NCBI GenBank assembly: GCA_963833985.1
Contig: CAWIAD010000001.1
Coordinates: forward strand, 640,001 to 704,000
Direction: 5' to 3'
DNA length: 64,000 nucleotides
DNA from: an uncultured Planctomycetaceae bacterium
Lineage (GTDB): Bacteria; Planctomycetota; Planctomycetia; Isosphaerales; Isosphaeraceae
Shown: in pieces, positions 42,048 through 60,863 of the stretch
Layout: every line of letters starts with the position of its first letter
Numbering within the stretch: position 1 is the stretch's first letter
Notes under the pieces: model-generated
What the model was told of the DNA's origin: nothing
The model's database searches: none
The model's input: the letters and a program-made list of their open reading frames with translations, nothing else
Program-made: the position numbers and the translations under genes

Positions 42048-45000
42048 CGGTGAGGCCGCGGAAAGTGATTCCATCGCCGATTCGCTCTCGATGTACGAGT
42101 AGCTTCAATGGGGCCGCGGCGGTGAGGCCGCGGAAAGCGATACACCGAGCCCCAGAGGGTGATTCTCCAGTGGAGCTTCAATGGGGCCGCGGCGGTGAGG
42201 CCGCGGAAAGCGCCGACAAGCAGCCGGTTCGACAGCGACGTCTACGGCTTCAATGGGGCCGCGGCGGTGAGGCCGCGGAAAGATTCTTGGCCCATCCTGA
42301 GCTGGTCAGCACGGTCGGCTTCAATGGGGCCGCGGCGGTGAGGCCGCGGAAAGATTCTTGGCCCATCCTGAGCTGGTCAGCACGGTCGGCTTCAATGGGG
42401 CCGCGGCGGTGAGGCCGCGGAAAGCAGGTGCCCTGGGCAACGCTCTGCACGAGCACGTTGTAGCTTCAATGGGGCCGCGGCGGTGAGGCCGCGGAAAGAC
42501 ATCCTCGGCCACGCGCTGAAGATCCTGATCAGCAGGCTTCAATGGGGCCGCGGCGGTGAGGCCGCGGAAAGTGAGCCGTGACGACGTGGTTGCCGACCTG
42601 GTCCGCACGGCTTCAATGGGGCCGCGGCGGTGAGGCCGCGGAAAGAGCGGTCATGATCCGGCTCGGCTACGACGACACAGCGCTTCAATGGGGCCGCGGC
42701 GGTGAGGCCGCGGAAAGTCCTGCGCGACCTGGCGGCCATCACGCACGGCACGCCGCTTCAATGGGGCCGCGGCGGTGAGGCCGCGGAAAGAGTCGGGTGT
42801 GGGCCGCTTCTTCAAGCGAGACCACGCGCTTCAATGGGGCCGCGGCGGTGAGGCCGCGGAAAGTATGTTGCCGTCAAAGCCCTACCTCCTTCCGCTTCAC
42901 GCTTCAATGGGGCCGCGGCGGTGAGGCCGCGGAAAGCCGTGCTGGATCGCCGTGGCGATCGCCTCCATTCCCTGCTTCAATGGGGCCGCGGCGGTGAGGC
43001 CGCGGAAAGCCGGGTATACCGCCGGCGGCAACACGCTCACGCTCGCCGCTTCAATGGGGCCGCGGCGGTGAGGCCGCGGAAAGCAGGGTGAAGCAGATCG
43101 GCGGTCCGGACGCTCCCTCGCTTCAATGGGGCCGCGGCGGTGAGGCCGCGGAAAGGGCATCAGAAAATCTCCTTCGCGTGCATACGTCGATTGCTTCAAT
43201 GGGGCCGCGGCGGTGAGGCCGCGGAAAGCGATGACCTTGGCGACGTCATCCCGGCAGTAGCCCGGCTTCAATGGGGCCGCGGCGGTGAGGCCGCGGAAAG
43301 ACGACCGGCGCGGAGCACTCGGGGCAGGGAGTGAAAGCTTCAATGGGGCCGCGGCGGTGAGGCCGCGGAAAGGGCATCTTGCGCATATCCACGTCCCGGC
43401 ATCAGTGATGCTTCAATGGGGCCGCGGCGGTGAGGCCGCGGAAAGCCAGCTTACGCCGGCGTAACAGGGGCCGGCCGCGACGCTTCAATGGGGCCGCGGC
43501 GGTGAGGCCGCGGAAAGCGGATTGGCCCACGTGGCACCAATGCACTCGTAAGAGCTTCAATGGGGCCGCGGCGGTGAGGCCGCGGAAAGCTGACCCCTTC
43601 GCCGCGCCATACCCGGGCGGACCTGGCTTCAATGGGGCCGCGGCGGTGAGGCCGCGGAAAGCCGGCTTGTCGCCTGTGCCGTAGTTCATCTCGATCCGCT
43701 TCAATGGGGCCGCGGCGGTGAGGCCGCGGAAAGAGTGGCCTGCACCGAACGCTGCCCGAGCACAGGCTGCTTCAATGGGGCCGCGGCGGTGAGGCCGCGG
43801 AAAGGGGCGGATGGCTGCGAAACCAGCGGCGGAGGAAATCGCTTCAATGGGGCCGCGGCGGTGAGGCCGCGGAAAGACGCTGTCACGAGACATGCGTGGC
43901 TCCGCGTGACTGGCTTCAATGGGGCCGCGGCGGTGAGGCCGCGGAAAGCTCTTGCTGTACGGTGGAATCAACGGGCTCCCTTAAAGGCTTCAATGGGGCC
44001 GCGGCGGTGAGGCCGCGGAAAGACAGCAAGGCCGCCCTGCGCGATCTACTGGGATTAGCTTCAATGGGGCCGCGGCGGTGAGGCCGCGGAAAGTTCAGAA
44101 CAAGGAGCGGACGGGGGAAACCAACCACAGAGCTTCAATGGGGCCGCGGCGGTGAGGCCGCGGAAAGAAGGGTTGCAGGGCAGCTCGGATCAGAACACCA
44201 CGGCTTCAATGGGGCCGCGGCGGTGAGGCCGCGGAAAGAACCAGGCCAAGGTGATGGCACGCGCGAGCCTGATCACGCTTCAATGGGGCCGCGGCGGTGA
44301 GGCCGCGGAAAGCCAGGGCGGTCGCGGCCTGTTCGGTCGCTGTCAGTAGCTTCAATGGGGCCGCGGCGGTGAGGCCGCGGAAAGGGGCCCCGACGAACAG
44401 GCCGAACAACGAGGCAGGGAGCTTCAATGGGGCCGCGGCGGTGAGGCCGCGGAAAGCCGCGGATCTGGTACTGCGTGTAGCCCGTGTTGTTGCTTCAATG
44501 GGGCCGCGGCGGTGAGGCCGCGGAAAGCCGCGTCGGGCCGGAAACCCAGTATTTCCCCAGTGAGCTTCAATGGGGCCGCGGCGGTGAGGCCGCGGAAAGA
44601 CACCCGGCGCATGTGCCCCCCGGCCCACTACTGGCCGGGCTTCAATGGGGCCGCGGCGGTGAGGCCGCGGAAAGAAAAACTGGTTGACCTGGCCCGCGCC
44701 GCTGCCGTTGGCGCTTCAATGGGGCCGCGGCGGTGAGGCCGCGGAAAGAAAAACTGGTTGACCTGGCCCGCGCCGCTGCCGTTGGCGCTTCAATGGGGCC
44801 GCGGCGGTGAGGCCGCGGAAAGCATGAATGCGGGATTGAAGGATGTGCCGATGGCCAAGGCTTCAATGGGGCCGCGGCGGTGAGGCCGCGGAAAGTTGGA
44901 CGGCAGGCCACGCAATTCGTGAGGCTGGTCAGGATGCTTCAATGGGGCCGCGGCGGTGAGGCCGCGGAAAGACATCGTCCTGGACTGGATGTTTCCCGGA

Positions 45001-48000
45001 TCCGCAAAGCTTCAATGGGGCCGCGGCGGTGAGGCCGCGGAAAGAGATGCCGTCCATCGAGAGTGATCAGGCGGCGTGGGCTTCAATGGGGCCGCGGCGG
45101 TGAGGCCGCGGAAAGTTGACGCCCGGCGCTCCTCGCATGGCGCGCCACAGTGCTTCAATGGGGCCGCGGCGGTGAGGCCGCGGAAAGTCGAAGATGTCCT
45201 CCACCTCGCCCGTCCAGGACAAAGCTTCAATGGGGCCGCGGCGGTGAGGCCGCGGAAAGTCGTCTCGCCGGCGACGGCCGCGGCCGGATGCGCTTGCTTC
45301 AATGGGGCCGCGGCGGTGAGGCCGCGGAAAGTACTCAACTCACGTTGTCGCCGCAGATGCGGGCAAAGCTTCAATGGGGCCGCGGCGGTGAGGCCGCGGA
45401 AAGTGAGGCGGTTCTCGAACGCGGCCCGATGGTCGATAGGCTTCAATGAGGCCGCGGCGGTGAGGCCGCGGAAAGTCTCCATCAGGTTCACGGCCGTCGC
45501 CATGGTGTTGGCTTCAATGGGGCCGCGGCGGTGAGGCCGCGGAAAGTACGCGACCAAGGCTGAGGCCGAGGCGAAGGCCAACGCTTCAATGGGGCCGCGG
45601 CGGTGAGGCCGCGGAAAGCATGGCATGTGCGATCATGGCGACGGGCGGCGAGGCGCTTCAATGGGGCCGCGGCGGTGAGGCCGCGGAAAGAAGAGGTCGG
45701 GGGTCAATCTGGGCTCGTGTCCTGTGGCTTCAATGGGGCCGCGGCGGTGAGGCCGCGGAAAGTGAGTTACCCCGCCCATGCAAGTACCGTGTGGCCGCGC
45801 TTCAATGGGGCCGCGGCGGTGAGGCCGCGGAAAGGCCTTGTGCCTGGCACGAGTTTCCCGTTTTGGGTTGGCTTCAATGGGGCCGCGGCGGTGAGGCCGC
45901 GGAAAGCGAGCGTGTCAGCACAAGCACGGCGATTCCTTTCGGGGCTTCAATGGGGCCGCGGCGGTGAGGCCGCGGAAAGAGCGCGTCTATCTCGGGAACC
46001 CACTCAAAGCGGAAGGGCTTCAATGGGGCCGCGGCGGTGAGGCCGCGGAAAGCCGCCCCGGGTCGACTTGCCCTTGCGCGCACGCTCGCTTCAATGGGGC
46101 CGCGGCGGTGAGGCCGCGGAAAGTCGAGCATGGCCACATACTCATCGGAGAAGCACTTGGCTTCAATGGGGCCGCGGCGGTGAGGCCGCGGAAAGGACCA
46201 CCAGCACCCAGGCTCTGAGCAAGGGCCTGAAGCTTCAATGGGGCCGCGGCGGTGAGGCCGCGGAAAGGGAGTGGCTCAAGGAAGACGAGGTAGCGAGGCT
46301 GTGGCTTCAATGGGGCCGCGGCGGTGAGGCCGCGGAAAGGTTTGCCCACATCGTGGCCGAGGCCGGGGTCGCGGCGCTTCAATGGGGCCGCGGCGGTGAG
46401 GCCGCGGAAAGCCGCGGCGTCCTGCTCGGCGACCGCGTTGGACGCGGCTTCAATGGGGCCGCGGCGGTGAGGCCGCGGAAAGGATCTCTTCTCCCCTGCC
46501 GATGAGGGATTGCCCCCATCTGCTTCAATGGGGCCGCGGCGGTGAGGCCGCGGAAAGCTGAGCCTTGCTCAGAACTCGTCGCTCTACAAGATCGTGCTTC
46601 AATGGGGCCGCGGCGGTGAGGCCGCGGAAAGCCCGGTGTCCTCGCTGTATTCGTCGGTCGACAGCGTGCTTCAATGGGGCCGCGGCGGTGAGGCCGCGGA
46701 AAGACATCTCTTGCGCCATGCGCATGCGCCGGACCAGCCCGACGCTTCAATGGGGCCGCGGCGGTGAGGCCGCGGAAAGTCACTTCGCGCCGCCTTTCCG
46801 CTTGCTCAACTCATGCTTCAATGGGGCCGCGGCGGTGAGGCCGCGGAAAGGACCAGGTGCTGGCTCACGTAGGTGGGGATGATCCAGCTTCAATGGGGCC
46901 GCGGCGGTGAGGCCGCGGAAAGGCGACAACCCCTGGAGAGATGACCATGCCCGCCAAGCTTCAATGGGGCCGCGGCGGTGAGGCCGCGGAAAGACACGGA
47001 CCCTTGCGAGCCGAGCGGCGAGTGCGACGCTTCAATGGGGCCGCGGCGGTGAGGCCGCGGAAAGAAAAGCATCTGCCGCCCGGCGCCGGACCGCCAGGCA
47101 GCTTCAATGGGGCCGCGGCGGTGAGGCCGCGGAAAGTGCGCACCGCTCGATCATGCCAGAGTCCACTGGCTGCTTCAATGGGGCCGCGGCGGTGAGGCCG
47201 CGGAAAGACGCTGTGGCCCGCGGCGGCGCGCCATGACCGATCAGCTTCAATGGGGCCGCGGCGGTGAGGCCGCGGAAAGATGGGGGCTGCCGATCCACTG
47301 GCGGTCGGCGACCTGGTGCTTCAATGGGGCCGCGGCGGTGAGGCCGCGGAAAGTCACGCGGTCGATGACGCGGATGCGCAGGGGCAACCGAGCTTCAATG
47401 GGGCCGCGGCGGTGAGGCCGCGGAAAGCCGGCAGATCCAAGCTCAGGCTCTCGCCAAGCTACGGGGCTTCAATGGGGCCGCGGCGGTGAGGCCGCGGAAA
47501 GAAAGAGCGACGCGCCCGACTACGGCATCAGCCAGGTGGCTTCAATGGGGCCGCGGCGGTGAGGCCGCGGAAAGGCGCTGCTCCAGCCCCTGGTCGTCGC
47601 CGCCGCCGAGGTGCTTCAATGGGGCCGCGGCGGTGAGGCCGCGGAAAGGCAGAGTGGTCCATCGGCATGGTGGCCGAGGCGGTGCTTCAATGGGGCCGCG
47701 GCGGTGAGGCCGCGGAAAGCGCCGCTCATGCTCGTCGAGTGACTGCGATGTTGATTGCTTCAATGGGGCCGCGGCGGTGAGGCCGCGGAAAGATGCCCGA
47801 CGGTTTCCCACTGGCGTGGCTCAAGCCAGCTTCAATGGGGCCGCGGCGGTGAGGCCGCGGAAAGCGCAAGACCGACCGCATCAAGGCCGAGGGCCTGGTA
47901 GCTTCAATGGGGCCGCGGCGGTGAGGCCGCGGAAAGTGGTTCAAGTTTCGCGGCCAGGTCGACCTGACCGAAGCGCTTCAATGGGGCCGCGGCGGTGAGG

Positions 48001-49391
48001 CCGCGGAAAGCTCGCGCGCGTCTACCTCGTCGGCAAGTGAAGCATGGCTTCAATGGGGCCGCGGCGGTGAGGCCGCGGAAAGGACCGCGCGGCCGCCGAG
48101 AACCGCGATGTTTCGGACGTGCTTCAATGGGGCCGCGGCGGTGAGGCCGCGGAAAGACACGCGATCCATCGCCAGGTAATCATCGAGAAGCAGCTTCAAT
48201 GGGGCCGCGGCGGTGAGGCCGCGGAAAGCGGCGGCACAATCGCGACCCGCGCGGCGACGATTGCGCTTCAATGGGGCCGCGGCGGTGAGGCCGCGGAAAG
48301 AGCACCCGAATCAGAGATGATGCGCCAACACTCTTTGCTTCAATGGGGCCGCGGCGGTGAGGCCGCGGAAAGCCCCGCGACGGACCTGCTGCCCGACGTG
48401 CAGGGCCTCTGGCTTCAATGGGGCCGCGGCGGTGAGGCCGCGGAAAGTCATATCGCGCGATCGAGAGTCGGTTCCACGAAAAACGCTTCAATGGGGCCGC
48501 GGCGGTGAGGCCGCGGAAAGCCCCTGGCGCGACCCGGAGGCGTTCCGGGAGCGCCAGGCTTCAATGGGGCCGCGGCGGTGAGGCCGCGGAAAGTCCCCTC
48601 GAAGCAGCGCAGCTTCAGCCGCGTGCCAGCCGGCTTCAATGGGGCCGCGGCGGTGAGGCCGCGGAAAGACATCGCGTCCAGGACGCTCCAGATCCGGGAG
48701 CAACGCGCTTCAATGGGGCCGCGGCGGTGAGGCCGCGGAAAGGGGCCGGAGCAGTGCGTGTTGCCGCCGGGCCTGTAGCTTCAATGGGGCCGCGGCGGTG
48801 AGGCCGCGGAAAGCAACTTCCTGAGCGAGCTCAACGGGACGATCGATGTTGGCTTCAATGGGGCCGCGGCGGTGAGGCCGCGGAAAGTCATTCATCTCGG
48901 CGGATTAATTCCGCCCTCGTCTGCTTCAATGGGGCCGCGGCGGTGAGGCCGCGGAAAGCAAACGGTACGGCCAGCCGGCGGAAGGCGCCGCGCAGCTTCA
49001 ATGGGGCCGCGGCGGTGAGGCCGCGGAAAGCCGCCGTGTTCCTCGACCCGCCCTACGCCGATACGGCGCTTCAATGGGGCCGCGGCGGTGAGGCCGCGGA
49101 AAGGCTTTTGCTCTCGCGAAACGCGCTCATCAACGGCGTGCTTCAATGGGGCCGCGGCGGTGAGGCCGCGGAAAGCGCGCCGCGGATCGTGATCACCTCA
49201 TCCCAGTAGCCGCTTCAATGGGGCCGCGGCGGTGAGGCCGCGGAAAGAATAGGTTCCCCCTGAGCCGTCGCAGGCGATCGACTCGCTTCAATGGGGCCGC
49301 GGCGGTGAGGCCGCGGAAAGCGGCCGGCACCCTCGCCGAGCTGGTGGAAGAGGCGGCTTCAATGGGGCCGCGGCGGTGAGGCCGCGGAAAG
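42048..49391 (-). CRISPR. Type I-G CRISPR array, about 101 full repeats plus a terminal half repeat
   Basis: 36-nt repeat CTTTCCGCGGCCTCACCGCCGCGGCCCCATTGAAGC (minus strand) with hairpin CCGCGGC/GCCGCGG and ATTGAAGC 3' handle; hand count 101 copies from 42102 to 49391; spacers about 35-40 nt; degenerate trailer repeat at 42048-42065. Confidence 0.99.
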
Positions 49392-49635: not shown

Positions 49636-51456
49636 CTAGCGCGTCACGAACACCGGGTACGAGGCGATCTCGCCGGTGAACAGCCGGGCCAGCAGCCGCG
49701 TCTGGATCTCCAGCATTCGCCGGTAATTGAGACGATAGCCGAACAGCGGGTGCGTCACAAGTGTGTCCATCCGCTGCTCGTACGCGCGGAAGAAGGCCTT
49801 CCTGCCGTCGGGCCGCAGCGCAACGGATTCCCCCGGCGCAGGAAGTCTCGCGGCGTGACCATCCGGGTATTGATCGCCGAGAGCACGGCCGAGTCCGCGA
49901 TCAGCGGCCGGAACGGCTCCATCAAGTCCAGCGCCAGGGCGCACGCCCGAACCGCGGCTGGTGATACACGCCCAGGAAGGGGTCGAACCCGACCGCGTGA
50001 CAGACGATGGTCAGGTCCTTGGCCAGCACGCTGTAGGCCAGCGACAGCATGGCGTTGACCGGGTCTTTCGGCGGCCGCCGGTTGCGATGGGTGAAGTCGA
50101 ACGAGAAGCCCCCGCCCGCTGCCGCGCCGGCACCGGCGCCCGCCCCGGCACCGGCGTTACTGCTGGCGTTCTCCGGTTCGTCGCCGGGCTCGCCGGTCTT
50201 GATCATGCCGGGGAAGAGCTCGAAGTAGATCCGCGCGGCGTTGCCTTCCAGGCCCAGGAGCTGCTGCGTCGACGCCGCGTTCTCGGCGTCATCGCACAGG
50301 GTCTTGAGCTGGGCGATCTTGCCGGCCGGGGGCTCGACGTGGTTGCGCTGGAGCATGGTCCGCTGGTTGCGGATCTTGCCGGCCACCAGCGTGCGCGAGA
50401 GCCGGAGCCGGAACTCGGGGTCTTCCGCCAGGCGGAACTGCTCGCGCCGCAGCGCGATGTTGCGCACGCCCAGCCCGTGTGTGGTCCCGTAGAACCAGCC
50501 GCCCTGGGAAAAGTAGCAGACGGGGACCTCGTTTTCACACAACGCCTGGAGCGCCTGGGTGGTGAGCTGGATGTTGCCGAACAGGCTCACCTGGCAGGTC
50601 TCACCGATGCGCACCTCCTGCACGACGGTGTCTTTTTCTTTCACCTTCAGCACGTTGCCCGACTTGCCGACGTGCAGACCCTGTGTGTTCAGATACAGCG
50701 GCCGCAGGTCGTCCCGCGCGGCGACCATCCGGCGCGGCTCAGCATCAACATCGCCGGCGGCAGCGGGGGCAGGACCATCGCCGGTTGCCGGCGGTGCGTT
50801 CGGCTCCCCGGCGGAGGCGGCCTCCTGGAGATAAAGCGTCTCGTCGGGCAGGCAGATGCCGACGAGCGAGCAGCGCGGGCACTTGGGGCTATCGGCCAGC
50901 GGCGCGGGGATGCGGCCGGCCACGGCCGCGGCGCGGGCCTGGGCAAGCGCCTGGAGCGTTTGCTCGACGAGGTTCTCGTCGATCGGCACGCGGACCCTTT
51001 GCCTGGTCTTGACGTAATAGACGACGCCCTCCTCGCAGGCATAACCGTTGTCCCTGAGCACCAGGGCTTGAACGGCGATCTGAACGCGGTCAGGGTCCCA
51101 GGCGCGGAGCTCGCCGGTCTCACCGTCCTTGAACGGCGCCCGCGCTTGTAATCGACGGGGGTGGCCGTGGCGCCTTCGGCCTCGACGACGTCGATGGTGG
51201 CGATGAGCCGGTGGGTCTCGCTGGAGAGCGTGACCGAGCGGGAGTGGACGCGCTGGTCTTCCGGCAACTCCTCGGCGGGCGCCAGCTCGTCGGAGCGGGC
51301 ATCGAGTTTGGCGTGCCTCAGCGCGCCCTCGACGGTTTCTTGATTGTGGGCGAAGACGCTTTCGACCCATTCATAGTAGAAGAGGCGTGGGCAGTAGACA
51401 TATTCGTTGAGCATGCGCGCGGGGAGGTAGTCGGGGAGTTCTTCAAGGAGCGGCAT
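49636..51456 (-). CDS. cas4/cas1: Cas4/Cas1 fusion (frameshifts near 51140, 49945 and 49840)
   Basis: Cas4: [34 protein letters not shown]. Cas1: [47 protein letters not shown]. Confidence 0.93.
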
Positions 51457-51488: not shown

Positions 51489-51779
51489 TCAGACAACGAC
51501 GCAGGGCGCGTTGATGGGCGAATAGGGCTGGCCGAGCGCGGTGATCACGCGTTCGCCGCGGCCCTCGGTTGGCCCGAGGTCGACGAAGAGGACCTGGTCC
51601 TGCTCGTGGTGGATGATCTCGCTGAGGACGAACCGGCAGGTGGCCAGGTCGATGGGCGTGAACTGGCACTCGAAGATCGAGTACTGCAAGTGGTCGCCGA
51701 AATCGCGCATGGCCTTGAAGACCTTGCGCAGCCGCTTGTCATCGCGGATGTCATAGCAGACGAGGAAGGTGTTGCGCAT
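51489..51779 (-). CDS. cas2: CRISPR-associated endonuclease Cas2
   Basis: MRNTFLVCYDIRDDKRLRKVFK...FGDHLQYSIFEC...DQVLFVDLG. Confidence 0.95.
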   Translation of the reverse strand: MRNTFLVCYDIRDDKRLRKVFKAMRDFGDHLQYSIFECQFTPIDLATCRFVLSEIIHHEQDQVLFVDLGPTEGRGERVITALGQPYSPINAPCVVV

Positions 51780-51811: not shown

Positions 51812-53374
51812 TTAGCCGTGATTGCTTGGGGTGAAGAGGCCCAGGCCGAAGTGGCACGAATGACCCAAGGCGATCGGCCCAGAAACCGGGGCTGGGAACC
51901 GGATGCGGAACACGCCGCGTTGGCGCTGGTTTCCGTCATCCCCGCGCTTACGCCGTGTAAGCTGGAACTCGATCGCACGCAGCCTAGAGTTGCTGACGTA
52001 TTCAAGGGGATCGATCTCCGCTGCGCCGAGTCCACGCCGGTCGAGTTCCTCAAGCAGAACCTGGGCGACAAACGCGCGCCGGCCTTCCGGGCCCTGAAAG
52101 AACTCCTTCGGGTCGCGCTTCCGCCCCCGGCGCTTGGGATGGCGCGTCACGACGAACGGAGTGGCGGATTCCCAGAGACTCGACTTCTCCAGTAGCGCCG
52201 CCCGAAAATCCTCGTGGACGCCGAGGCCAACGAGTTGCACTCGCAGCTTGAGCGACTCGTCAACGAGCCTGAGCGTGCGAAGAGAATTCAGAGCGGCTAC
52301 CTCATCAGTTCCGAAGCCGTCAGCGGCTGCGGCAGTGACGTGCGTGATTCGTCGCGGATCGACGCCCTCGGCAGTAGGCAGGTAGAACGCATGTCGATGG
52401 CCCTGGAGGAATTGCCCTTCCGCATCTTTCCCTGAGAGTACTTCGGATCGGAACAACTCTCGGTCTGGCTCATGCACGGGGCCGTAGCGCTGAAGATGTC
52501 GGTGTCGTTGATACCGGCTCATCAGACCGCACCGGAAGGCCTCGGCCACGCGGATCGAGTTGGTAACGAGCGGCAGGACGGGCCCGTCAAGCAGGAAACG
52601 AGCGAGCGTTGGCGTTTGCTGGTTGCGCGAGCGAGGTTTCGCCGCGACGGGTCCGGCTTCCACCGGCCGGCTGTAGTTCACCCATCGCGCACCGGGAACG
52701 CTGGACCACCTCTCTTCGTGGATCGTTTCGGTGTCCAGGCAGAGGTGCCAGCGAGGGCAGTCGAATAGATAGTGGGAAGGGCTAATCTTTCCCCTGGCCA
52801 GTTTCGTGCGGTCGAGCACCGGGTAGTGTTGGTCGTTGAACGCAGCCGCTGGATCAGGACACAACACGGGGACGGGACTCGGGTCAGACACCTCAGCGGG
52901 CCCAAGGTTCAATTCGACCGTGGCGTCGGTCAGTTCGGCGTGAGCCCAGCCCTCCGCTCGGCCCAAGTAGGAGAGGTTAGCGAGAAGTTTTGAGAGGACC
53001 TCGCGGTCGCCGTCACACAGTTCGGCATTTGGCCATCCCACGAACAGCGGTTCGCGGCGATCGACGGTGACGAACGTGTCGAACACAAGGGTTCGGTCGG
53101 CCGGTCCCTTTTTCTCCCATGGCATGTAGTGTCGGGTGTGAGCGACGCGGAATGGCGGCAGACGGAACAGCGGTGGGTGCGCCAGAGGTTCGAGAATTCG
53201 GCGGACCTGGGATTCGGAGTAGTCCGGACAGGTCCTTCTCCACACGGCGATCAGCGCCCGCAGCAGCCGCCAAGGGGACGGCGGCCACTCGGGCACGCCC
53301 TCGTTCACGTGCCGGCCCCACGGTGTCGCGTGATATCGGCCACTCGGAAATGCGAGCTTGATAATCACAGGCAT
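51812..53374 (-). CDS. csb2: Type I-G Cas5/Cas6 fusion RAMP Csb2
   Basis: GRYHATPWGRHVNEG.PEWPPSPWRLLRAL, YLGRAEGW, C-terminal Gly loop GPIALGHSCHFGLGLF. Confidence 0.93.
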   Translation of the reverse strand: MPVIIKLAFPSGRYHATPWGRHVNEGVPEWPPSPWRLLRALIAVWRRTCPDYSESQVRRILEPLAHPPLFRLPPFRVAHTRHYMPWEKKGPADRTLVFDTFVTVDRREPLFVGWPNAELCDGDREVLSKLLANLSYLGRAEGWAHAELTDATVELNLGPAEVSDPSPVPVLCPDPAAAFNDQHYPVLDRTKLARGKISPSHYLFDCPRWHLCLDTETIHEERWSSVPGARWVNYSRPVEAGPVAAKPRSRNQQTPTLARFLLDGPVLPLVTNSIRVAEAFRCGLMSRYQRHRHLQRYGPVHEPDRELFRSEVLSGKDAEGQFLQGHRHAFYLPTAEGVDPRRITHVTAAAADGFGTDEVAALNSLRTLRLVDESLKLRVQLVGLGVHEDFRAALLEKSSLWESATPFVVTRHPKRRGRKRDPKEFFQGPEGRRAFVAQVLLEELDRRGLGAAEIDPLEYVSNSRLRAIEFQLTRRKRGDDGNQRQRGVFRIRFPAPVSGPIALGHSCHFGLGLFTPSNHG

Positions 53375-53389
53375 GGGTTAATCCTCGCC

Positions 53390-54583
53390 CTATGGCTTGT
53401 TCCACGTCAGTTGCGTCACTCTCGGCTCAGCAAATTGAGGGCTGCATTTCTTCATCAGGTCGCCGAGGTCACTCGTCAGCTCCGTGGTTGAAGGCAGTAA
53501 GAATCCCTCCGGTCGCGTGATGCGAATGGATTTGTCGTCCTTCAGCTCCAGCTCACAGGCCGTCCTCAACCGCATGTTCGAGTCGAGGAAACGCCGGACC
53601 TTCCAGAGCGATAGCACGATCAGTAGATTCACAGCGTTCTCGCCCAAGCCGTATCCGCGAATCTGTGCGAGGTCGAGACTGAAAAACGCGGTGATGGACT
53701 TGGCGGTGAATTCCGTGCGGTGGAAAGGAACGTTACCGTAGCCGCTCTTGGCATCCACTCCGGCCACACTCGGTTTGGGCAGGGCACGGTCGAACTTGAC
53801 CCCACCGCTGTCTGCCCGACCGACGCCACTCGCCTCGATGAACGAGGAGAGAGCCCGTGGGTGCCTCAGCCGGCCCGCGATCTTTTCAAGAAACACTCCA
53901 TGAACCAGGGAGTTTGGGTCGTACTTGAAGCAAACCGCGGCAAGCCTACGGAGGTTGACCACGCCGGCCACGTCGTCGCGGTCTGTGTCACCTGTACCAG
54001 CAGCCTCTTCCGTTGCGGGCTGGGTTGTCGCGCCCCGGCGACCTTGCGAGCGGCGAGCGGGCGCCGCTACCACGGCCATGCCCAGTTCCGGCTTGAGAAC
54101 GTCCGAGAAACTGGTTCCAGTTGGGATCTCCACCTCCTCGTCATCCCCGGACCCTGACCTACTGAGTTTAACGGTGACCTTTCGCTCGGTCGCTCCGTTC
54201 ATGATGTAAGGCGAATTGAGACGGTGGAACTCAAGTATGCTGCAAGTGGTGTCGGTACCGTTACCGAGACCGGCGAGATTCACCTTGACGTAAGGAATCC
54301 CCGGCGCCTTCGTCGCTGCCCTGCTCTCGGCGCCGTTGACTTCAACCATCAGGTCGGCGACAAGATTATCGTTTGCTTCATCCCAGCACACGGATTCAAG
54401 TCGGTTGGCCATTGACTGGGCGGACTCGACCAACAGCATGGAGTTGCCGTCCGGCGCGTCGTACGTGGCCGGGCCAAGGTCCGGAAAGCCGGTTGGCTGG
54501 ATACGCGTGCCCGCCACGGGTTTAAGCGCGGCTTCGATCAGAATGCGTGGCTTGTCTTGAAGTCCCCTGAAGTCTGTGAACAT
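53390..54583 (-). CDS. csb1: Type I-G Cas7 backbone Csb1
   Basis: RIQPTGFPDLG, LLVESAQSMANRLE, HRLNSPY, DPNSLVHGVF, SGGVKFD, GNVPFHR. Confidence 0.92.
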   Translation of the reverse strand: MFTDFRGLQDKPRILIEAALKPVAGTRIQPTGFPDLGPATYDAPDGNSMLLVESAQSMANRLESVCWDEANDNLVADLMVEVNGAESRAATKAPGIPYVKVNLAGLGNGTDTTCSILEFHRLNSPYIMNGATERKVTVKLSRSGSGDDEEVEIPTGTSFSDVLKPELGMAVVAAPARRSQGRRGATTQPATEEAAGTGDTDRDDVAGVVNLRRLAAVCFKYDPNSLVHGVFLEKIAGRLRHPRALSSFIEASGVGRADSGGVKFDRALPKPSVAGVDAKSGYGNVPFHRTEFTAKSITAFFSLDLAQIRGYGLGENAVNLLIVLSLWKVRRFLDSNMRLRTACELELKDDKSIRITRPEGFLLPSTTELTSDLGDLMKKCSPQFAEPRVTQLTWNKP

Positions 54584-54585
54584 GG

Positions 54586-56800
54586 TTACTCCTCGATCTC
54601 GGGTGGATAGAGAACGGCGTTCGCAATTGTCTCGAGGTCACGGTAGGAGAGCGGAAACAGCATTGCCGCGAGTAGCCGCTCGGCCGGGATAGCGGACTCT
54701 ACGGCCAGCGACCGCCGAGCCATTTGGCGGTTCCGGAATCCATGCACGAGTCGGCCGCTGGATTTCAGCCGTCGGGCCGCACGATCGACGCACCTCCCGA
54801 CCGCATCGGGCTGACCTGTGGCGAGGATGTGAAATACACTGGGATCGGGCTTGGCCTCTGGATCTTCACCGACACAGATCTTCCAACCGTCGCTGGAGGC
54901 GTCGATTACCCGCGGTTCGACGAGCAGCCGGGGCACGCCAAACTCGAATGGCACCTCCCCGTCTCCGCTCGGCAATTCGAAGGCGACAGCGGACCAATCG
55001 ACAGCCGACAAGCCCCAGGTGAGGTCGTCCACTTTGGCGTCGTCGATTTCGTACCGAAGGAATGCGACAACATCTCCCAGCCTCGCTGGGCGGGGCGAGT
55101 AGAGTGGTACCCCTGCCCGCCCCCAGGTCTCGGGATCTCGGAACGCTTCCATCAATCGGCGGCGAAAGACGGCGCCAAGATTGGCATGAAGCGGTCGTTT
55201 CAGCCACACCGCAGACGTACTGCCCGGGGACCAGCTGACGGATTTGGTCGCCTCAACTTCTTCAAGGTAGGCGCGCAGTGGACCGACATGGCCGTGTGCC
55301 TGAATACCCGCGAGACTTGTTGCGAGTCGAAACTCCGGGCTGAGGTCGTTCGCCTGTGCAAGCCATCCGTTGTCCAACATCTGAAGCGGACGGAGATACT
55401 TGTCCTTGCAGAAGGCCAGCCCGTTCGCGAGTGTCCGCTCCGCGCTGACCGAGAGCACGCAGCACCTCAACCAGGAACTTCGCGTCGTCGCCCTTTTCGC
55501 TTCGACTTGCAAACCTGTAGATTGCTCCGTCGACCTGTCGCAGCGTAGTCTGGTAGCGGGCTGGGGTCCTATCCTTATCCCGGCAGGCGATGCGAAGACG
55601 GTCAAGCCACTCCCAAAGCCGAGGATCGTTGAGCAGCCGAGCGTGCGGACGGAGTGTCACTGCGACACGTCCGAGAGGCGCCGCCAGAAATGCCAGCCCA
55701 TTTCGCTTCAGGAACCCATAGCGCGCGAAGGAATCCAACCCGCTCCCAACCCCCAGCAGGTTGACGGCCAAGGCGAACTCGATCGCATTTTGAGCCTGTC
55801 GCCGTCCGAGCTGAGCGCGACCTTCTGCAAACAGGTGTTCGATCTCCCCGAACCCCGCCGGCTCACGCCACAACGGCAGCCACAACTCGGACCGCGAGGC
55901 GTCGGTGGTTTCTTCGGTAGCTGCCGCGGACCCATACCCGACCGCGACCGAAAGGACACTGAACGGGAACACGGCCCGTCCAGGACTGTTGGCCCCGAGC
56001 CTACCAGGACTGTTGGCCCCGAGCCTGCGGGCGACAGAGCCGGCGAATAGCAACGCCCCTTCAATCATCAGCACGAAGTCCCAGGGGTTCACTCGCGAGT
56101 CGGCTTCGAACTTCCCTTGAGTGCCGTTTGCTCCGCCGATTCCGCCTGGATTGAACTGACCAATCGATGTCCTTCCCAACTCGACCATGTTGTCCGCGAA
56201 CAACGCGGCAGCGAGGCTTTGTTGCGAGTCGGACGTGGGTTGTGTGCCTGTAGCAAACGGAATGACGTCAGCCAACCGCTGCATAAAGTTGTTGGTAAAG
56301 TCGAGCCGGCCGTCGTTACCGCCTGTGCCAAGGAGTGGGAAGAAGCTCGGACCATCCTCTCCCAGTACAAAGCAGACATCGAGCCAGGGAACGACCTCGT
56401 CGGCGAGCTCAGAGCGGCAGCGAACGAGGAGTGATTCCTTCGCTTCACCCTTGGGCTTGGTTTTTGGAGCAAACGCGCGGATACGGCCGATGGTCTCGCG
56501 ATACAAAGTGAGCCGTTCGGCCGTTGATTGAGCGATGGCGTCGAGCGGATCGGCTCCGCCTCCGTAGAACCCGCTCCCTCCGTTCCAGGGCGCAGTAATC
56601 GGGGTCGGGCGGTATTGCTCGAGGAAGAACTGCGTTAGCCCCTCGCGGCCAAGCTGACCGTGCAGGTGAGCAATCCCGCCTGACCAGGAAAGGCGTGCGT
56701 CCGGGTCGCCCTGCTCGGCAACCAATCGGAACACCCCGAGTGTCTTCAAGTAACCCATGAGAGGCTCTGGCGTGCAGCCCGTGAGTGCAACCTCAGCCAT
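54586..56800 (-). CDS. csx17: Type I-G large subunit Csx17 (Cas8u1) (frameshift near 55460)
   Basis: GCTPEPLMGYLKTLGVFRLVAEQ, PWNGGSGF, LLGTGGNDGRLDF, NPWDFVLMIEG, ELWLPLW, EFRLA. Confidence 0.9.
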
Positions 56801-59182
56801 TCCCGGCCTCCTTTCGGCTTGCCCGCGCATCGGCCGCGCGCAGGAGCGCTTCTAGGTACGCCAGCTTGAATGGTCCGAGATCCGCCAGGAGTTTCAGCGC
56901 CTGGGCAGTCCAACTGCCGTCTCCGCCCAATTGCATCGGCGACAGGTCCAGGACTGTGGCAGGACACATCTCCCCGCCACCGAGATCAACCTCGGGCATC
57001 TGATCGCCGTCGCGAACGCCAAGGGCGAAACGAATCACTGTGTCAGTCGGCGGTTCCTCGCCAGGAAGCGCCCGGATCACCAGTCGCACTCGGCCGTGGT
57101 GGGCGGCGATCAGGTAGGCTACGGCGAACGGCCAATCCTCAAGGTTTTGCAGTACGGCCAAGGCCGAGCCGAGTTCATGTCGGAATTGTTTCCGACCGTA
57201 ATTCCCGTAGTTCAGTCGACCTCTGCGACCGGATTTGGCAAGCAACCTGGATGGGTCAGGGTTCTCAGGTTCATACATTGCCTTCTGCGAAACCGGAAGC
57301 GCCTTTCCAACGTCGTGCCATTGAGCGGCTCTCACGAGTTGACTTTGCCATCCGTCAAGCCATTTGCCTAGTTGGTTGCATATTCCGGACATTTCATAGC
57401 AGACGTGCTGGGTGTGCTCTTCAATGGTCAGGGCAACCGGAATGGTCGATTTGGGATCAGAATTGACGGCTTCCTCGTTCACTTTTTCTTTCGGTGGTAG
57501 CGGCGTTACTGTCTCCTTGCTTTCTTCATCCCAACCTCTTCCGGTCGCCGACACAGTGTCCCAGTCATAGCCACCAGCCGTAACCGGCAACAGTATCGTC
57601 AGACCGGGCCGGATTTCATGTTTAGGGTCGCGCACTTGCCGCCACCGGTCATCGAGGTAGTCCCAGACGAAACCTTGGACCTTCTCCTTGTTCAGGAACG
57701 CCTTGATGCTTCCGACGGGCACGTTGCACAGTTCCCGTCGCACTGGCGACACCTCCCAACTTTCTGCCGTTATGTCTCGCCAGAAGACTTGGACGTCGCT
57801 GTCCGGGTCATCGCCACGGACGAACCTCTGGATGTCGATATCGTTTCCGGACAGATCTGGTGCTGTGTCAAACAGATCGAGCAGGTCCTTGCGGCGAAGG
57901 ACGTGAGTGTGCATGAAAGGTAGCGTGATGGATCGATCTCGTTTGAAGTCGTCGAGAGCCCTTGGAGACACATCACATCCACCGAGGGCAACCAACTGCT
58001 CGCGAGCGAACGCAAGGGCGACCGGCTCGTACGGGGCCGCTCGCTTCTCGGTGTCTAGGTCGATCCAGAAGACGCGTCCGGGTGCATCATCGCCCGTGCG
58101 GTTACATCGGCCGATGCGCTGCACGACGCTAGCCCAGGGAGCCAGTTCCGTAATCAACGTGCGGGCGGAGATGTCCACTCCAGCCTCGACGACCTGCGTG
58201 GCTACAATGATTCGGTCCGATTTCTCGTTCGTAAGCTTGTCGTTCAGGATTTGCCGCTCGGCAGGGCGAAATCGTGAGTGGATGAGCAAGACATCTTTTG
58301 GAGCAGCCATGTCTTTCTTGATGGCTGCGTACAAATCATTCGCTCTCGCAACTGTGTTCATCACAACGAGAGTCTGCGTACCGGCCACGTGGTGCCTTAC
58401 GACCTGGTGCGAAACTTCCTTCCCATCCGCGGTCGGGTTAACCATCAAGGGCTCGAGCTTTTTCTCCGCCGTCATCCGCTTGTAAAGGGATCTCTTCGGG
58501 TCGTAATCATCATCGGATAATTCCAGCGCCCCATGAGGAAACCGACCAGCAAAATCAATCGTATCGAGCCATTCCGGCTCCAGCGTGGCTGACATCCAGA
58601 CCGACGTGCAGGAGCCGGAGGTGCCCAGCGCGGCTCGTAACCCCGCCAATTGTGCGGATGTCGATACACCAGCGCCCATGAGCTGAGGTTCGTCAAAAAC
58701 CCATACGCAATCGTTGTTCAGCATGCCGAAGTCGATTGGCCAGTGGAACCGACTGGCGGAATACCCGCGATTGAGTGCACGGGACAACAGCATGTCCTGC
58801 GTGCCAATCAAGATCGCTGGTCTCTCTGGGTGCAAGTACCAGTCAGCCGTGTCCACGCCTCCCATCAACACGTGGACCTCTACCGCATCGACCTCTCGGC
58901 CCATATTACTGATCCAGCCGCGAGCCGCCCTTTCTGACTGCTCCACGAGGACTCGCATCGGTAAGCAGTAGACTAGCCGTCTCGGTGTCGGCTTGCCGCT
59001 GTGGAAAAATCGCCACAACCACCCGAGGACTGCCGTAGCAGTCTTCCCGGCTCCGGTGGCGCGCGAACGAGATGCGGGGTCGCATCCGCCTCAGCGAAAC
59101 GCTGCTGGTATGGGAAGGGCATCCGTCCATGTGGCTCGGAGTCGGATCGCGTCGCCTGTTTGAAAAAATCCAAGTAAGTCAT
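56793..59182 (-). CDS. cas3: Type I-G Cas3 helicase with C-terminal HD nuclease (frameshift near 59060)
   Basis: PFPYQ, split Walker A RAP-GAGKT, RRLVYCLPMR, DEPQ, SAT, ATQVVEAGVD, QRIGRCNR; HD motifs HDVGK, RHE and HHG at the C-terminus as in I-G. Confidence 0.95.
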
Positions 59183-59408
59183 GAGTCATCTCGCAAGGAT
59201 TCTACCAGGGCGTCGTAAGGCTAATCTTGTCGCTTCACGTGCGCGGTTCCACATGAAAGCATGTATGATGTAATTCTGTTACCCCGCAAGTTTTTGATGG
59301 ACGCAATGTACCGAGCGTGAGTGGCCCTGCCGTTCGCCTGAACTATGGTCTCGGACGCAAGGGCAGAGGCTCTGGGGCTGTGGTCGTCCGGGATCGAAGG
59401 GCGGTTCG

Positions 59409-59618
59409 TCAACGGCGAGGCAAACGTTGTCGCTTCCGAAGGTTTAGCAATCGCCGGAGTACCTGCTCCTCATCGGCCTCGACTCTCCGTTGGCGTAGCA
59501 TTTCTAGGAAGCGGTTACGTAGGGTAGGATTAACGAGAATCGTGTCCGCGGATGCGCCGGTTCCGTCCCGGAAGGAGGTGTAGGTCGAAACAAGCTGTTC
59601 ATCATCGAGTGGTTGCAT
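59409..59618 (-). CDS. 69-aa hypothetical protein upstream of cas3 (candidate CRISPR-repressed toxin or regulator)
   Basis: Strong GAGGAGG SD, ATG at 59618, own sigma70-like promoter; helical with basic tail LLNLRKRQRLPRR. Confidence 0.72.
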   Translation of the reverse strand: MQPLDDEQLVSTYTSFRDGTGASADTILVNPTLRNRFLEMLRQRRVEADEEQVLRRLLNLRKRQRLPRR

Positions 59619-59630
59619 GGCAAGCCTCCT

Positions 59631-59653
59631 CAATCACTTTTCCGTTCTAGTAA
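59631..59653 (-). promoter_or_regulatory. Partial protospacer with PAM targeted by the mini-array spacer
   Basis: TTA|CTAGAACGGAAAAGTGATTG versus spacer CTAGACCGGCAAAGTGACTG, 17/20 identical. Confidence 0.78.
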
Positions 59654-59664
59654 ACAACAACTAG

Positions 59665-59694
59665 AGTTTAGTCGCGCACCATTCGCAGCGTCAA
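59665..59694 (-). promoter_or_regulatory. Sigma70-like promoter for the small ORF (and possibly the cas operon)
   Basis: TTGACG (59694-59689), 18-nt gap, TAAACT (59670-59665). Confidence 0.62.
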
Positions 59695-59713
59695 CACCCC
59701 AAAATGTGAACGT

Positions 59714-59822
59714 CCACTTTTCGCCTCGGGTGCGTGGCCCCATTGAAGTCTAGACCGGCAAAGTGACTGTACCCGAGAGGGTCTACACCCCACGGCCCAA
59801 CTGGCCGTGGCCCCATTAGTGA
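59714..59822 (+). ncRNA. Mini-CRISPR / crRNA-like RNA (CreA/CreR-like): degenerate repeat, 36-nt spacer, degenerate repeat
   Basis: R1 59714-59749 ends GGCCCCATTGAAGT (21/36 identical to array repeat); spacer 59750-59785; R2 about 59786-59822 with hairpin CCACGGCC-CAACT-GGCCGTGG then CCCCATT. Confidence 0.8.
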
Positions 59823-59855
59823 ATAAGCCATGCCATGGACGCATAGTTCCTGGCA

Positions 59856-60863
59856 TCATGAGCCCGGAGTGCATGAAGAAACCTCGTTTCGGTAGTTCCC
59901 GGCCATGGCGCTCGCGTCGGCCTGGACCATCGCGGCGAGCTCTTCGGGTTCCAACACCTTGCAGTCGGGGCCCCAGTACATCACCCAGCGCTTCAGCTCG
60001 CGCAGGTCGTTGACCACGAGACGAAGGACCAAGGCGCCGTCGTCCTGCGGCTCGACGACCTGGCTGGAGTGCCATTGCTTCTCGCGGATCCGGCCGGCAT
60101 GGGCGGGCGTGAATCGAAGCGCGACCTGATACTGGCCGTCGCCCCGGATCGTGCCGAAGCTGGCCGCCATGTAGTCCCTGACCTGGAAGTCCGGCGGGCG
60201 GACGAACGAGGCTCCCGTCTCCTCGGCCGAGCGCAGCGCGCTGCACCTTGAAAAAACGGATCTCGCTGCGCAGGTGGCAAAAACCGATCAAACACCAGTC
60301 GTCGTCGGCCGCCAGGGCCAGGGCGTACGGGTCCACCTCCCTGCTCGCGACGGAGTTCCGGGCCGCCGTCCAGTAAACCATGCGCACCCGGCGTGACTGC
60401 TGGACGGCCGCGACCAGGATGCGAAAGACGCCGGGATCGTAGGACGTCTGAACCCGCGGCAGCACGTCGAGACAACCTGACAGGTCCTCCAGGGACACCT
60501 CGACCTGCTCGGGAAGGCTCCGGGCGATCTTCTTCAGCGCCTGCCTCAGGTCGTGCTCGAACGGCGTACCACGATACAGGTTCATCACCTGGGCCGAGAT
60601 CAACAGCGCCACCAGCTCGCCGCGCGTTGCCGCGAAGTACGAGAGTCTGTAGGACGAATCCGCGTAAAAATAGCCGTTCCGCGCCTATCAAATTCCAGAG
60701 GGGCGCGCAGGCGGTTGCGCATGAACTCGATGTCCCGCTGGACTGTCCGGGCCGAGACCTCCATCATCCGTCCCAGGGTCCGGGCGTTGGGATACTCGCG
60801 GCCCAGAACGGCCGAGTCGATCACCTGGACCCGTTCGATCGGGGGTCTCGTCGATCCGCGCAT
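59856..60863 (-). CDS. HTH-WYL-WCX transcriptional regulator (several frameshifts)
   Basis: HTH LGRMMEVSARTVQRDIEFMR, WYL REVDPYAL...WCLIGFCHLRSEIRFFK, WCX REKQWH...WVMYWGPDCKVLEPEEL spread across three or more frames. Confidence 0.88.

Follow-up and report, generated by a model that had tools for sequence, protein, structure and literature searches.

A candidate CreA/CreR-type guide at the head of a planctomycete type I-G cas operon, and the conserved small protein gene beside its target

Degenerate CRISPR units can encode guides that act on their own cas loci. They include CreA of the CreTA modules, in which the partner CreT is an RNA toxin (PMC9458426, PMC10120712), and CreR, which is defined without a coupled toxin gene and was tested in types I-B, I-E and V-A only; creA-like elements were also found for types I-U and I-C (Liu et al., bioRxiv 10.1101/2023.03.10.532045). 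In the type I-F module CrePA, the small protein CreP is a 103-amino-acid (aa) cell-division inhibitor with a KilAC domain, and the target lies upstream of the −35 element (Shu et al., bioRxiv 10.1101/2024.01.05.574328). CRISIS elements belong to type I-C, carry single repeats after a mostly larger enzymatic or membrane cargo, and use TTC or TTA as protospacer-adjacent motif (PAM) (Shu et al., bioRxiv 10.1101/2024.12.27.630466). In the mini-array survey of Shmakov et al. (PMC10120712), type I-G appears only in Table 1 (4% of 235 loci), and no I-G targets or cargo are given in the passages covered. We describe a two-repeat mini-array, its target and a 69-aa open reading frame (ORF) ahead of the type I-G cas3 gene in 64,000 nucleotides (nt) of DNA from an uncultured Planctomycetaceae bacterium (GCA_963833985.1, contig CAWIAD010000001.1, positions 640,001 to 704,000; the whole stretch is called the window), for which an earlier note, made from the bare sequence, had proposed a CreTA/CreR-like circuit.

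The element shares traits with each of these systems. Like CreR, it is a degenerate mini-CRISPR whose first repeat (R1) keeps the 5′ handle and second repeat (R2) the 3′ handle, and it matches in part a PAM-flanked site next to the effector operon's promoter, here a predicted one; unlike CreR, it has a conserved protein gene between the target and cas3. The guide architecture, with R1 more diverged than R2, is that of CreTA, whereas selection acts here on a protein and not on an RNA toxin. As in CrePA, a mini-array and a small protein gene share a cas locus, and the guide faces the promoter region of that gene; in contrast to CrePA, the protein has 69 aa and no Pfam match, the system is type I-G and the target lies downstream of the predicted −10 element. 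CRISIS is similar in its interchangeable cargo within the cas operon, its repression (in the window, a predicted one) by RNAs resembling CRISPR RNAs (crRNAs) and its mismatches at positions 6 and 12; no 70-aa helical protein is among the CRISIS cargo in the sections covered, and the terms 'I-G' and 'I-U' are absent from the CRISIS text (10.1101/2024.12.27.630466). The mini-arrays of Shmakov et al. also run opposite to cas3 and are aimed at cas or cargo promoters.

Judged by the features that can be tested in sequence, the window element is of the CreA/CreR kind, and it is neither a CreT nor a CreP homolog. We consider it very probable that its spacer is a regulatory guide of this type, and probable that guide repression with the small protein as payload is the right account of the locus. 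The mechanism is already published (CreA/CreR, CrePA, CRISIS), and I-U elements have been predicted, one of which (Liu et al.) could be a relative of the window locus; the new part is the cargo protein family. The literature searched, mainly open-access, gives no account of this family or of planctomycete I-G mini-arrays.

The mini-array and its target

The mini-array occupies 59714–59822 on the plus strand, opposite to the main array, and consists of degenerate repeats outside that array. R1 (59714–59749) keeps its 3′ half with the 8-nt 5′ handle (59742–59749), the spacer (59750–59785) has 36 nt, and R2 (59786–59822) keeps the 3′ hairpin, an 8-bp stem-loop at 59790–59810, after which come 4 nt and a handle that has decayed. 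The repeats, handle and spacer thus lie where the earlier note had placed them, and the enclosed 36 nt are the modal spacer length of the main array (40 of 99 spacers). The R2 hairpin folds stably (−15.8 kcal/mol, z −3.3), and that of R1 is weak or largely lost (z +0.4); R2 was the more stable of the two in 21 of the 23 loci scored. The A-T pair in the R2 stem is present as had been claimed, and its description as compensatory may not hold, since A-T is also the usual form in the mini-arrays of relatives and the pair may have been inherited rather than gained as a local compensatory change.

Csb2 is reported to cleave 4 nt beyond the base of the hairpin, which leaves an 8-nt handle (PMC9638904); by this rule, a cut in R2 is predicted after 59814. 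Across 33 loci the R1 sequences are unrelated, yet 19 loci (5.4 expected) retain an R1 stem whose end lies 3–5 nt ahead of the handle, as would fit the same rule. A further preprint places the cut elsewhere and finds the stem dispensable (10.1101/2022.08.19.504415). In the predicted precursor, 59722–59735 in the 5′ part of R1 pairs with 59767–59780 in the PAM-distal part of the spacer, which can also form a 4-bp hairpin with a GNRA loop. We considered the PAM-distal half as a conserved hairpin that limits the R-loop and set this aside: 12 of 37 guides and 7 of 98 array spacers had z below −1.5, and the overall p of 0.25 leaves a weak hint. For the mini-array itself, a search for promoters returned only weak and inconsistent sigma-70 matches.

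The target (59631–59650, minus strand) matches the first 20 nt of the spacer at 17 positions, with mismatches at 6, 10 and 18; spacer positions 21–36 agree with it at only 2 of 16. It is flanked by the PAM TTA (59651–59653), in line with TTN, the PAM reported for type I-G (PMC9638904). Upstream on the same strand is a predicted sigma-70-like promoter, TTGACG-18-TAAACT (59665–59694), the sole promoter-like site in 59150–59900 (1 found, 0.3 expected). The target begins 14 nt past the −10 element and touches the Shine-Dalgarno sequence GAGGAGG (59625–59631) of the 69-aa ORF (59409–59618, minus strand). Similar promoters lie 3–31 nt before the target in divergently arranged relatives. This placement between promoter and Shine-Dalgarno sequence bears out the earlier description, as does the polarity of the guide: it has the same sense as the mRNA, which excludes antisense action on that mRNA and means that the guide must act on DNA.

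The match was compared with chance in several ways. None of the 99 array spacers came below 5 mismatches within the same 565-nt region, and 5000 shuffles of the guide 20-mer gave no site at 3 mismatches and one at 4. In the 10.2-Mb genome, no other TT-flanked site fits the first 17 nt with one mismatch or none once positions 6 and 12 are set aside. These results argue against a decayed array remnant whose self-match is accidental or historical and has no present function. The lost R1 hairpin, the seed-adjacent mismatch of the window copy and the frame breaks in several cas genes would suit such a remnant. The relatives described below also speak against it, with their co-variation and six-base periodicity across 24 guide clusters, and we regard it as highly improbable.

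Guides and targets of related loci

To follow guide and target through homologous loci, we took the nearest repeat-flanked handle upstream of each family ORF, picked blind to targets, which gave 37 loci; for two of them (L102, L122) a distance above the limit of 300 nt was accepted, and the search windows were fixed after an exploratory look. In 31 of the 37, the guide finds in its own locus a site that, over 17 nt and with positions 6 and 12 left aside, has no more than 2 mismatches, and none of 1320 swapped guide–locus pairs meets the same standard. The earlier note had set out this comparison beforehand as a refutation test, and its proposal came through it. The guides are mostly unrelated in sequence, with on average 5.0 of 17 nt identical and 24 clusters. 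Four of the six remaining loci show a TT-flanked match that is partial or contains one indel, and in two the sequence available upstream is too short. Seven more loci came from a wider search, including 5 with a sigma-factor-like gene before the ORF and one with the array downstream, and the total stands at a guide–target pair in 42 of 80 ORF loci. The relation is kept in three layouts: a divergent one, a tandem one in which the target lies some 600 nt upstream, and one that has the array downstream.

The mismatches follow a period of six. Positions 6, 12 and 18 are mismatched in 23, 22 and 25 of the 31 guides, about the random rate seen beyond position 18 (15–26), and every other position up to 17 is mismatched in 0–5. 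This free drift agrees with the statement that mismatches at 6 and 18 cost nothing. Pairing ends at 15–21 nt in 25 of the 31 guides. The PAM starts with TT in 26 of 27 I-G cases, as the earlier note's TTN would have it. The periodicity suggests that I-G Cascade ignores every sixth base, for which these natural sequences would be evidence; together with the pairing of about 17 nt, it may serve as a design rule for I-G gene silencing. The 42 loci supply comparative evidence that extends RNA-guided self-regulation of CRISPR-Cas to type I-G.

The four I-C-type loci behave differently at the PAM, which is GCC in all of them. The usual I-C PAM is TTC, and GCC is possibly a variant of it. These loci (L108, L112, L113, L115; also L213–L215) contain cas3, the ORF and cas5c with a repeat-derived guide. 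Other loci (L094, L099; L208, L209) have short divergent arrays of 2–4 repeats upstream of the ORF; spacers are duplicated in L094, and one spacer of L099 matches a TTG-flanked site on the opposite strand, 144 nt before the ORF.

Predicted repression and the role of the small protein

In the mechanism that we propose, the mini-array would give a crRNA-like RNA of a predicted 73 nt (59742–59814), composed of the 8-nt handle, the 36-nt spacer and the R2 hairpin. This RNA would load into the only type I-G Cascade of the genome, which has a single Csb1 locus. Cascade would recognise TTA, pair over about 17–20 nt just downstream of the promoter and block RNA polymerase, and the short R-loop would avoid cutting of its own target. 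The PAM side of the bound complex would face the oncoming polymerase. For dCas9 and dCas12a this is the fully blocking side (PMC9758054), and we carry the rule over to Cascade by analogy. The promoter would drive the 69-aa gene and probably cas3-cas8g-csb1-csb2 as well. The 226 nt that precede cas3 showed neither a promoter nor a terminator, and the gap between the ORF and the cas genes is often below 100 nt in relatives; the ORF and the effector genes are therefore probably repressed together by the guide. The outcome would be a negative feedback, in which a shortage of Cascade, its saturation with other crRNAs or its inhibition by an anti-CRISPR turns on both the operon and the small protein.

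Several observations weigh against this reading of the guide. The mismatch at position 10 of the window target is rare among relatives (2 of 31). The window R1 lacks the handle-proximal stem found in the 19 loci above, which makes its 5′ processing uncertain. Frame breaks interrupt cas3, cas8g, cas4/1 and the WYL gene in the assembly; we take them as assembly indels, presumably. In addition, I-G Cascade binds DNA stably in vitro only with Cas3, and the two nick near the centre of a full R-loop (PMC9638904). The part of the earlier note that had Cascade binding without Cas3 cutting may for this reason not transfer to type I-G: the complex that represses would probably include the nuclease, with the short R-loop keeping it inactive, and the safety of a partial match is an assumption. 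If it holds, pairing of about 17 nt would be tolerated on the bacterium's own chromosome although Cas3 is probably part of the complex on the DNA.

The earlier note had called the 69-aa ORF an orphan, which it is not. It has 8 close homologs, and a profile yields 125 representatives, mostly of 60–100 aa. Matches, fused forms included, occur in 44 of 401 genomes of the same class and, at a stricter cut-off, in 4 of 401 genomes of an even phylum sample; Atlas clusters and one named record point to Planctomycetota. The product is a basic protein (isoelectric point 11.0). The ratio of nonsynonymous to synonymous substitution rates (dN/dS) of the ORF to its two nearest relatives is 0.12, and it is 0.05–0.27 in 11 of 13 ORF pairs with unsaturated dS. 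As judged from these sequences, the ORF is under purifying selection at the protein level, which rules out an RNA toxin of the CreT type. No Pfam or NCBIfam family matches the protein (P0001), PADLOC matches none of 97 family members, and there was no match in solved-structure sequences or in the Foldseek PDB and viral libraries (E≤0.001), nor in named Atlas clusters, viral contigs or plasmids.

The AlphaFold model of the protein has four helices (predicted local distance difference test, pLDDT, 89.7). A homodimer is predicted, with a score of 0.70 against 0.00 for the best of 3 controls, 100% contact agreement between runs and pLDDT of at least 88; the mark applied was passed by 20 of 30 solved pairs and 1 of 23 single chains. 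The modelled interface coincides with the most conserved residues (25, 28–31, 50–51, 54–55, 58) and leaves the basic LRK tail free. The best VIA-align match has Z 6.2 (root-mean-square deviation 2.6, 58 residues aligned), which is middling, and many winged-helix and trihelix entries are tied at Z 5–6, in the range of common helical arrangements.

The family keeps company with cas genes. From 121 domain hits in 136 loci we dropped fused, multi-domain and fragmentary copies, which left 81 standalone ORFs, and 57 of these have a cas match within 1.5 kb. The ORF is followed by cas4/1 in 20, cas3 in 19, csb1 in 9 and the I-C cas5 in 5. By hand count, Csb1 is present in 40 of 45 genomes of one family (f5) with a strong standalone homolog versus 114 of 252 overall. 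Among 51 cas-linked loci with the ORF, 33 have a guide, and among 40 I-G loci that lack the ORF, 7 have one, in searches that were unequal and genomes that are related. In module-less relatives cas2 often abuts cas3, and remnants of cas2 or csb1 follow the ORF in three loci (L031, L034, L136), which together suggest that the module is mobile and enters in front of the effector genes, bringing along a controlled promoter of its own.

The payload would be a basic, dimeric and probably nucleic-acid-binding effector that slows or arrests growth, in the manner of CreP or CRISIS cargo. The CrePA-like layout, the mobility and the higher guide frequency with the ORF are points for such a growth-arrest effector, and its probability falls a little short of even. 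Against toxicity, the guide–target pair was not found in 38 of 80 ORF loci; these include 18 of 22 members of one well-supported clade, whose ORFs retain a dN/dS of 0.11–0.25; with intact homologs in a clade without a detectable guide, the label of addiction module given in the earlier note is unproven. In a genome that consists of one contig (G029) the ORF lies about 35 kb from the cas genes, with no guide in either 20-kb stretch (100 of 203 repeat matches listed). Placed first in the cas operon, a gene that kills the cell would also switch on whenever Cascade needs replenishing. A passenger, or some other function, is rather unlikely.

The small ORF might instead be a passenger or accessory gene whose control is incidental to plain CreR-like autorepression of the cas operon. 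In the 7 guide-bearing I-G loci that lack the ORF, the guide stands alone and its target is TT-flanked, several of them just ahead of cas genes, and the ORF usually sits tightly upstream of cas3, csb1, cas4/1 or cas5c (53 of 81 within 800 nt), both of which would suit such autorepression. The conservation of the protein across I-G and I-C-type loci speaks against it, and one locus (L226) with a perfect guide–target match and no cas match in the 9 kb fetched suggests that the cargo itself is held down. We consider autorepression with an incidental ORF distinctly unlikely.

It is possible, if on the unlikely side, that the protein is a harmless DNA-binding regulator that relays the state of Cascade, low or blocked, to other promoters, such as those of the CRISPR leader, the adaptation genes or neighbouring defence genes. 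The predicted symmetric dimer with its free basic tail and the helical fold would suit a regulator, and the intact guide-less copies are easier to reconcile with one. The domain also occurs as tandem repeats before GIY-YIG nucleases and fused behind TIR domains, and in other loci (L013, L020, L022, L027, L030; L167, L180) the guide-controlled slot in front of the ORF or of cas genes is taken by sigma-factor-like genes. The sigma-factor calls rest on Pfam hits for L027 and L030, with none for L013, and were otherwise made by eye. On the other side, no family-wide operator-like motif was seen upstream by eye, the leader drifts freely with the guide, no target promoter was identified, and guides are retained much more often with the ORF than without it. 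Somewhat more doubtful is the specific form in which the small dimer translates the presence of Cascade on a single promoter into a broader transcriptional response. If true, this would be a CRISPR-sensed regulon run by an undescribed DNA-binding family, with sigma-factor-like genes in the same slot elsewhere; it would be mobile between I-G and I-C-type systems, its guide and PAM being adjusted at every move, and would work in a subtype whose complex on the DNA includes Cas3. Under the wider reading of guide repression with a payload, the unannotated family is a candidate CRISPR-repressed toxin, immune effector or regulator, and the cargo slot holds more undescribed genes.

Some of these can be named. 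A conserved ORF of 52–63 aa with cysteine pairs lies between target and mini-array in tandem-layout loci (L011, L037, L075, L076, L089, L100, L103), about 200–470 nt upstream of the family ORF, and the one tested has no Pfam match. In three ORF-less I-G loci (L171:11702–11989, L186, L191), a lone guide targets the leader of another gene of about 80–96 aa, of which the one tested has no Pfam or NCBIfam match. Besides its tandem repeats before GIY-YIG nucleases and its place behind TIR domains, the family domain occurs as a small gene directly after DndB-family genes (P0013, P0093, P0102; L041, L063; L111, L116–L118 for these three settings), and it is encoded beside HerA- and SbcC-like genes. 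By association alone, this company hints that the cargo may protect against phages. In genus g49 and its kin, mostly at guide-less loci, a motif of three spaced GAAC words lies 20–65 nt upstream of the ORF (L008, L077, L085, L090–L094, L102, L114, L122) and may be an alternative promoter or operator. A strict pattern of this motif, too rigid in its spacing, gave no match, and one pattern searched for a guide acting in trans on it gave none in 5 genomes.

The surrounding type I-G locus

The I-G genes of the window lie on the minus strand. cas3g (56793–59182) and cas8g1/csx17 (54586–56830) each have one frame break, near 59050 and 55445, and both are intact in a relative (L136). They are followed by csb1/cas7g (53390–54583), csb2 (51812–53374), a Cas5-Cas6 fusion and the presumed processing enzyme, cas2 (51489–51779) and a cas4g/cas1g fusion with several frame breaks (49639–51438). 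The I-G cas genes match TIGR02621, TIGR04113, TIGR02570 and TIGR02165 of NCBIfam over the cut-off; NF049935 is a best match that falls under the cut-off on the broken frame. No RNA run was among the sequencing runs listed, and the one DNA run gave a single 151-nt contig over 59380–59530, which is outside the frame breaks.

The main array (42102–49391, minus strand) has 100 identical 36-nt repeats that end in the handle ATTGAAGC. Its spacers have no full-length protospacer match in their own genome and none in phages, and against plasmids they gave only repeat-like or short matches, so that no PAM was derived from them. Outside the window, near 2303066 of contig G000:C2 on the minus strand, a lone unit of half repeat, 37-nt spacer and half repeat is of the main-array type; no target of its spacer was found in the genome.

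Next to the mini-array, a WYL-WCX regulator gene in pieces (59856–60863, minus strand) ends 34 nt from R2. WYL or WCX genes also stand upstream of many related I-G operons, and antisense read-through of the mini-array by the WYL-WCX transcript could be conceived.

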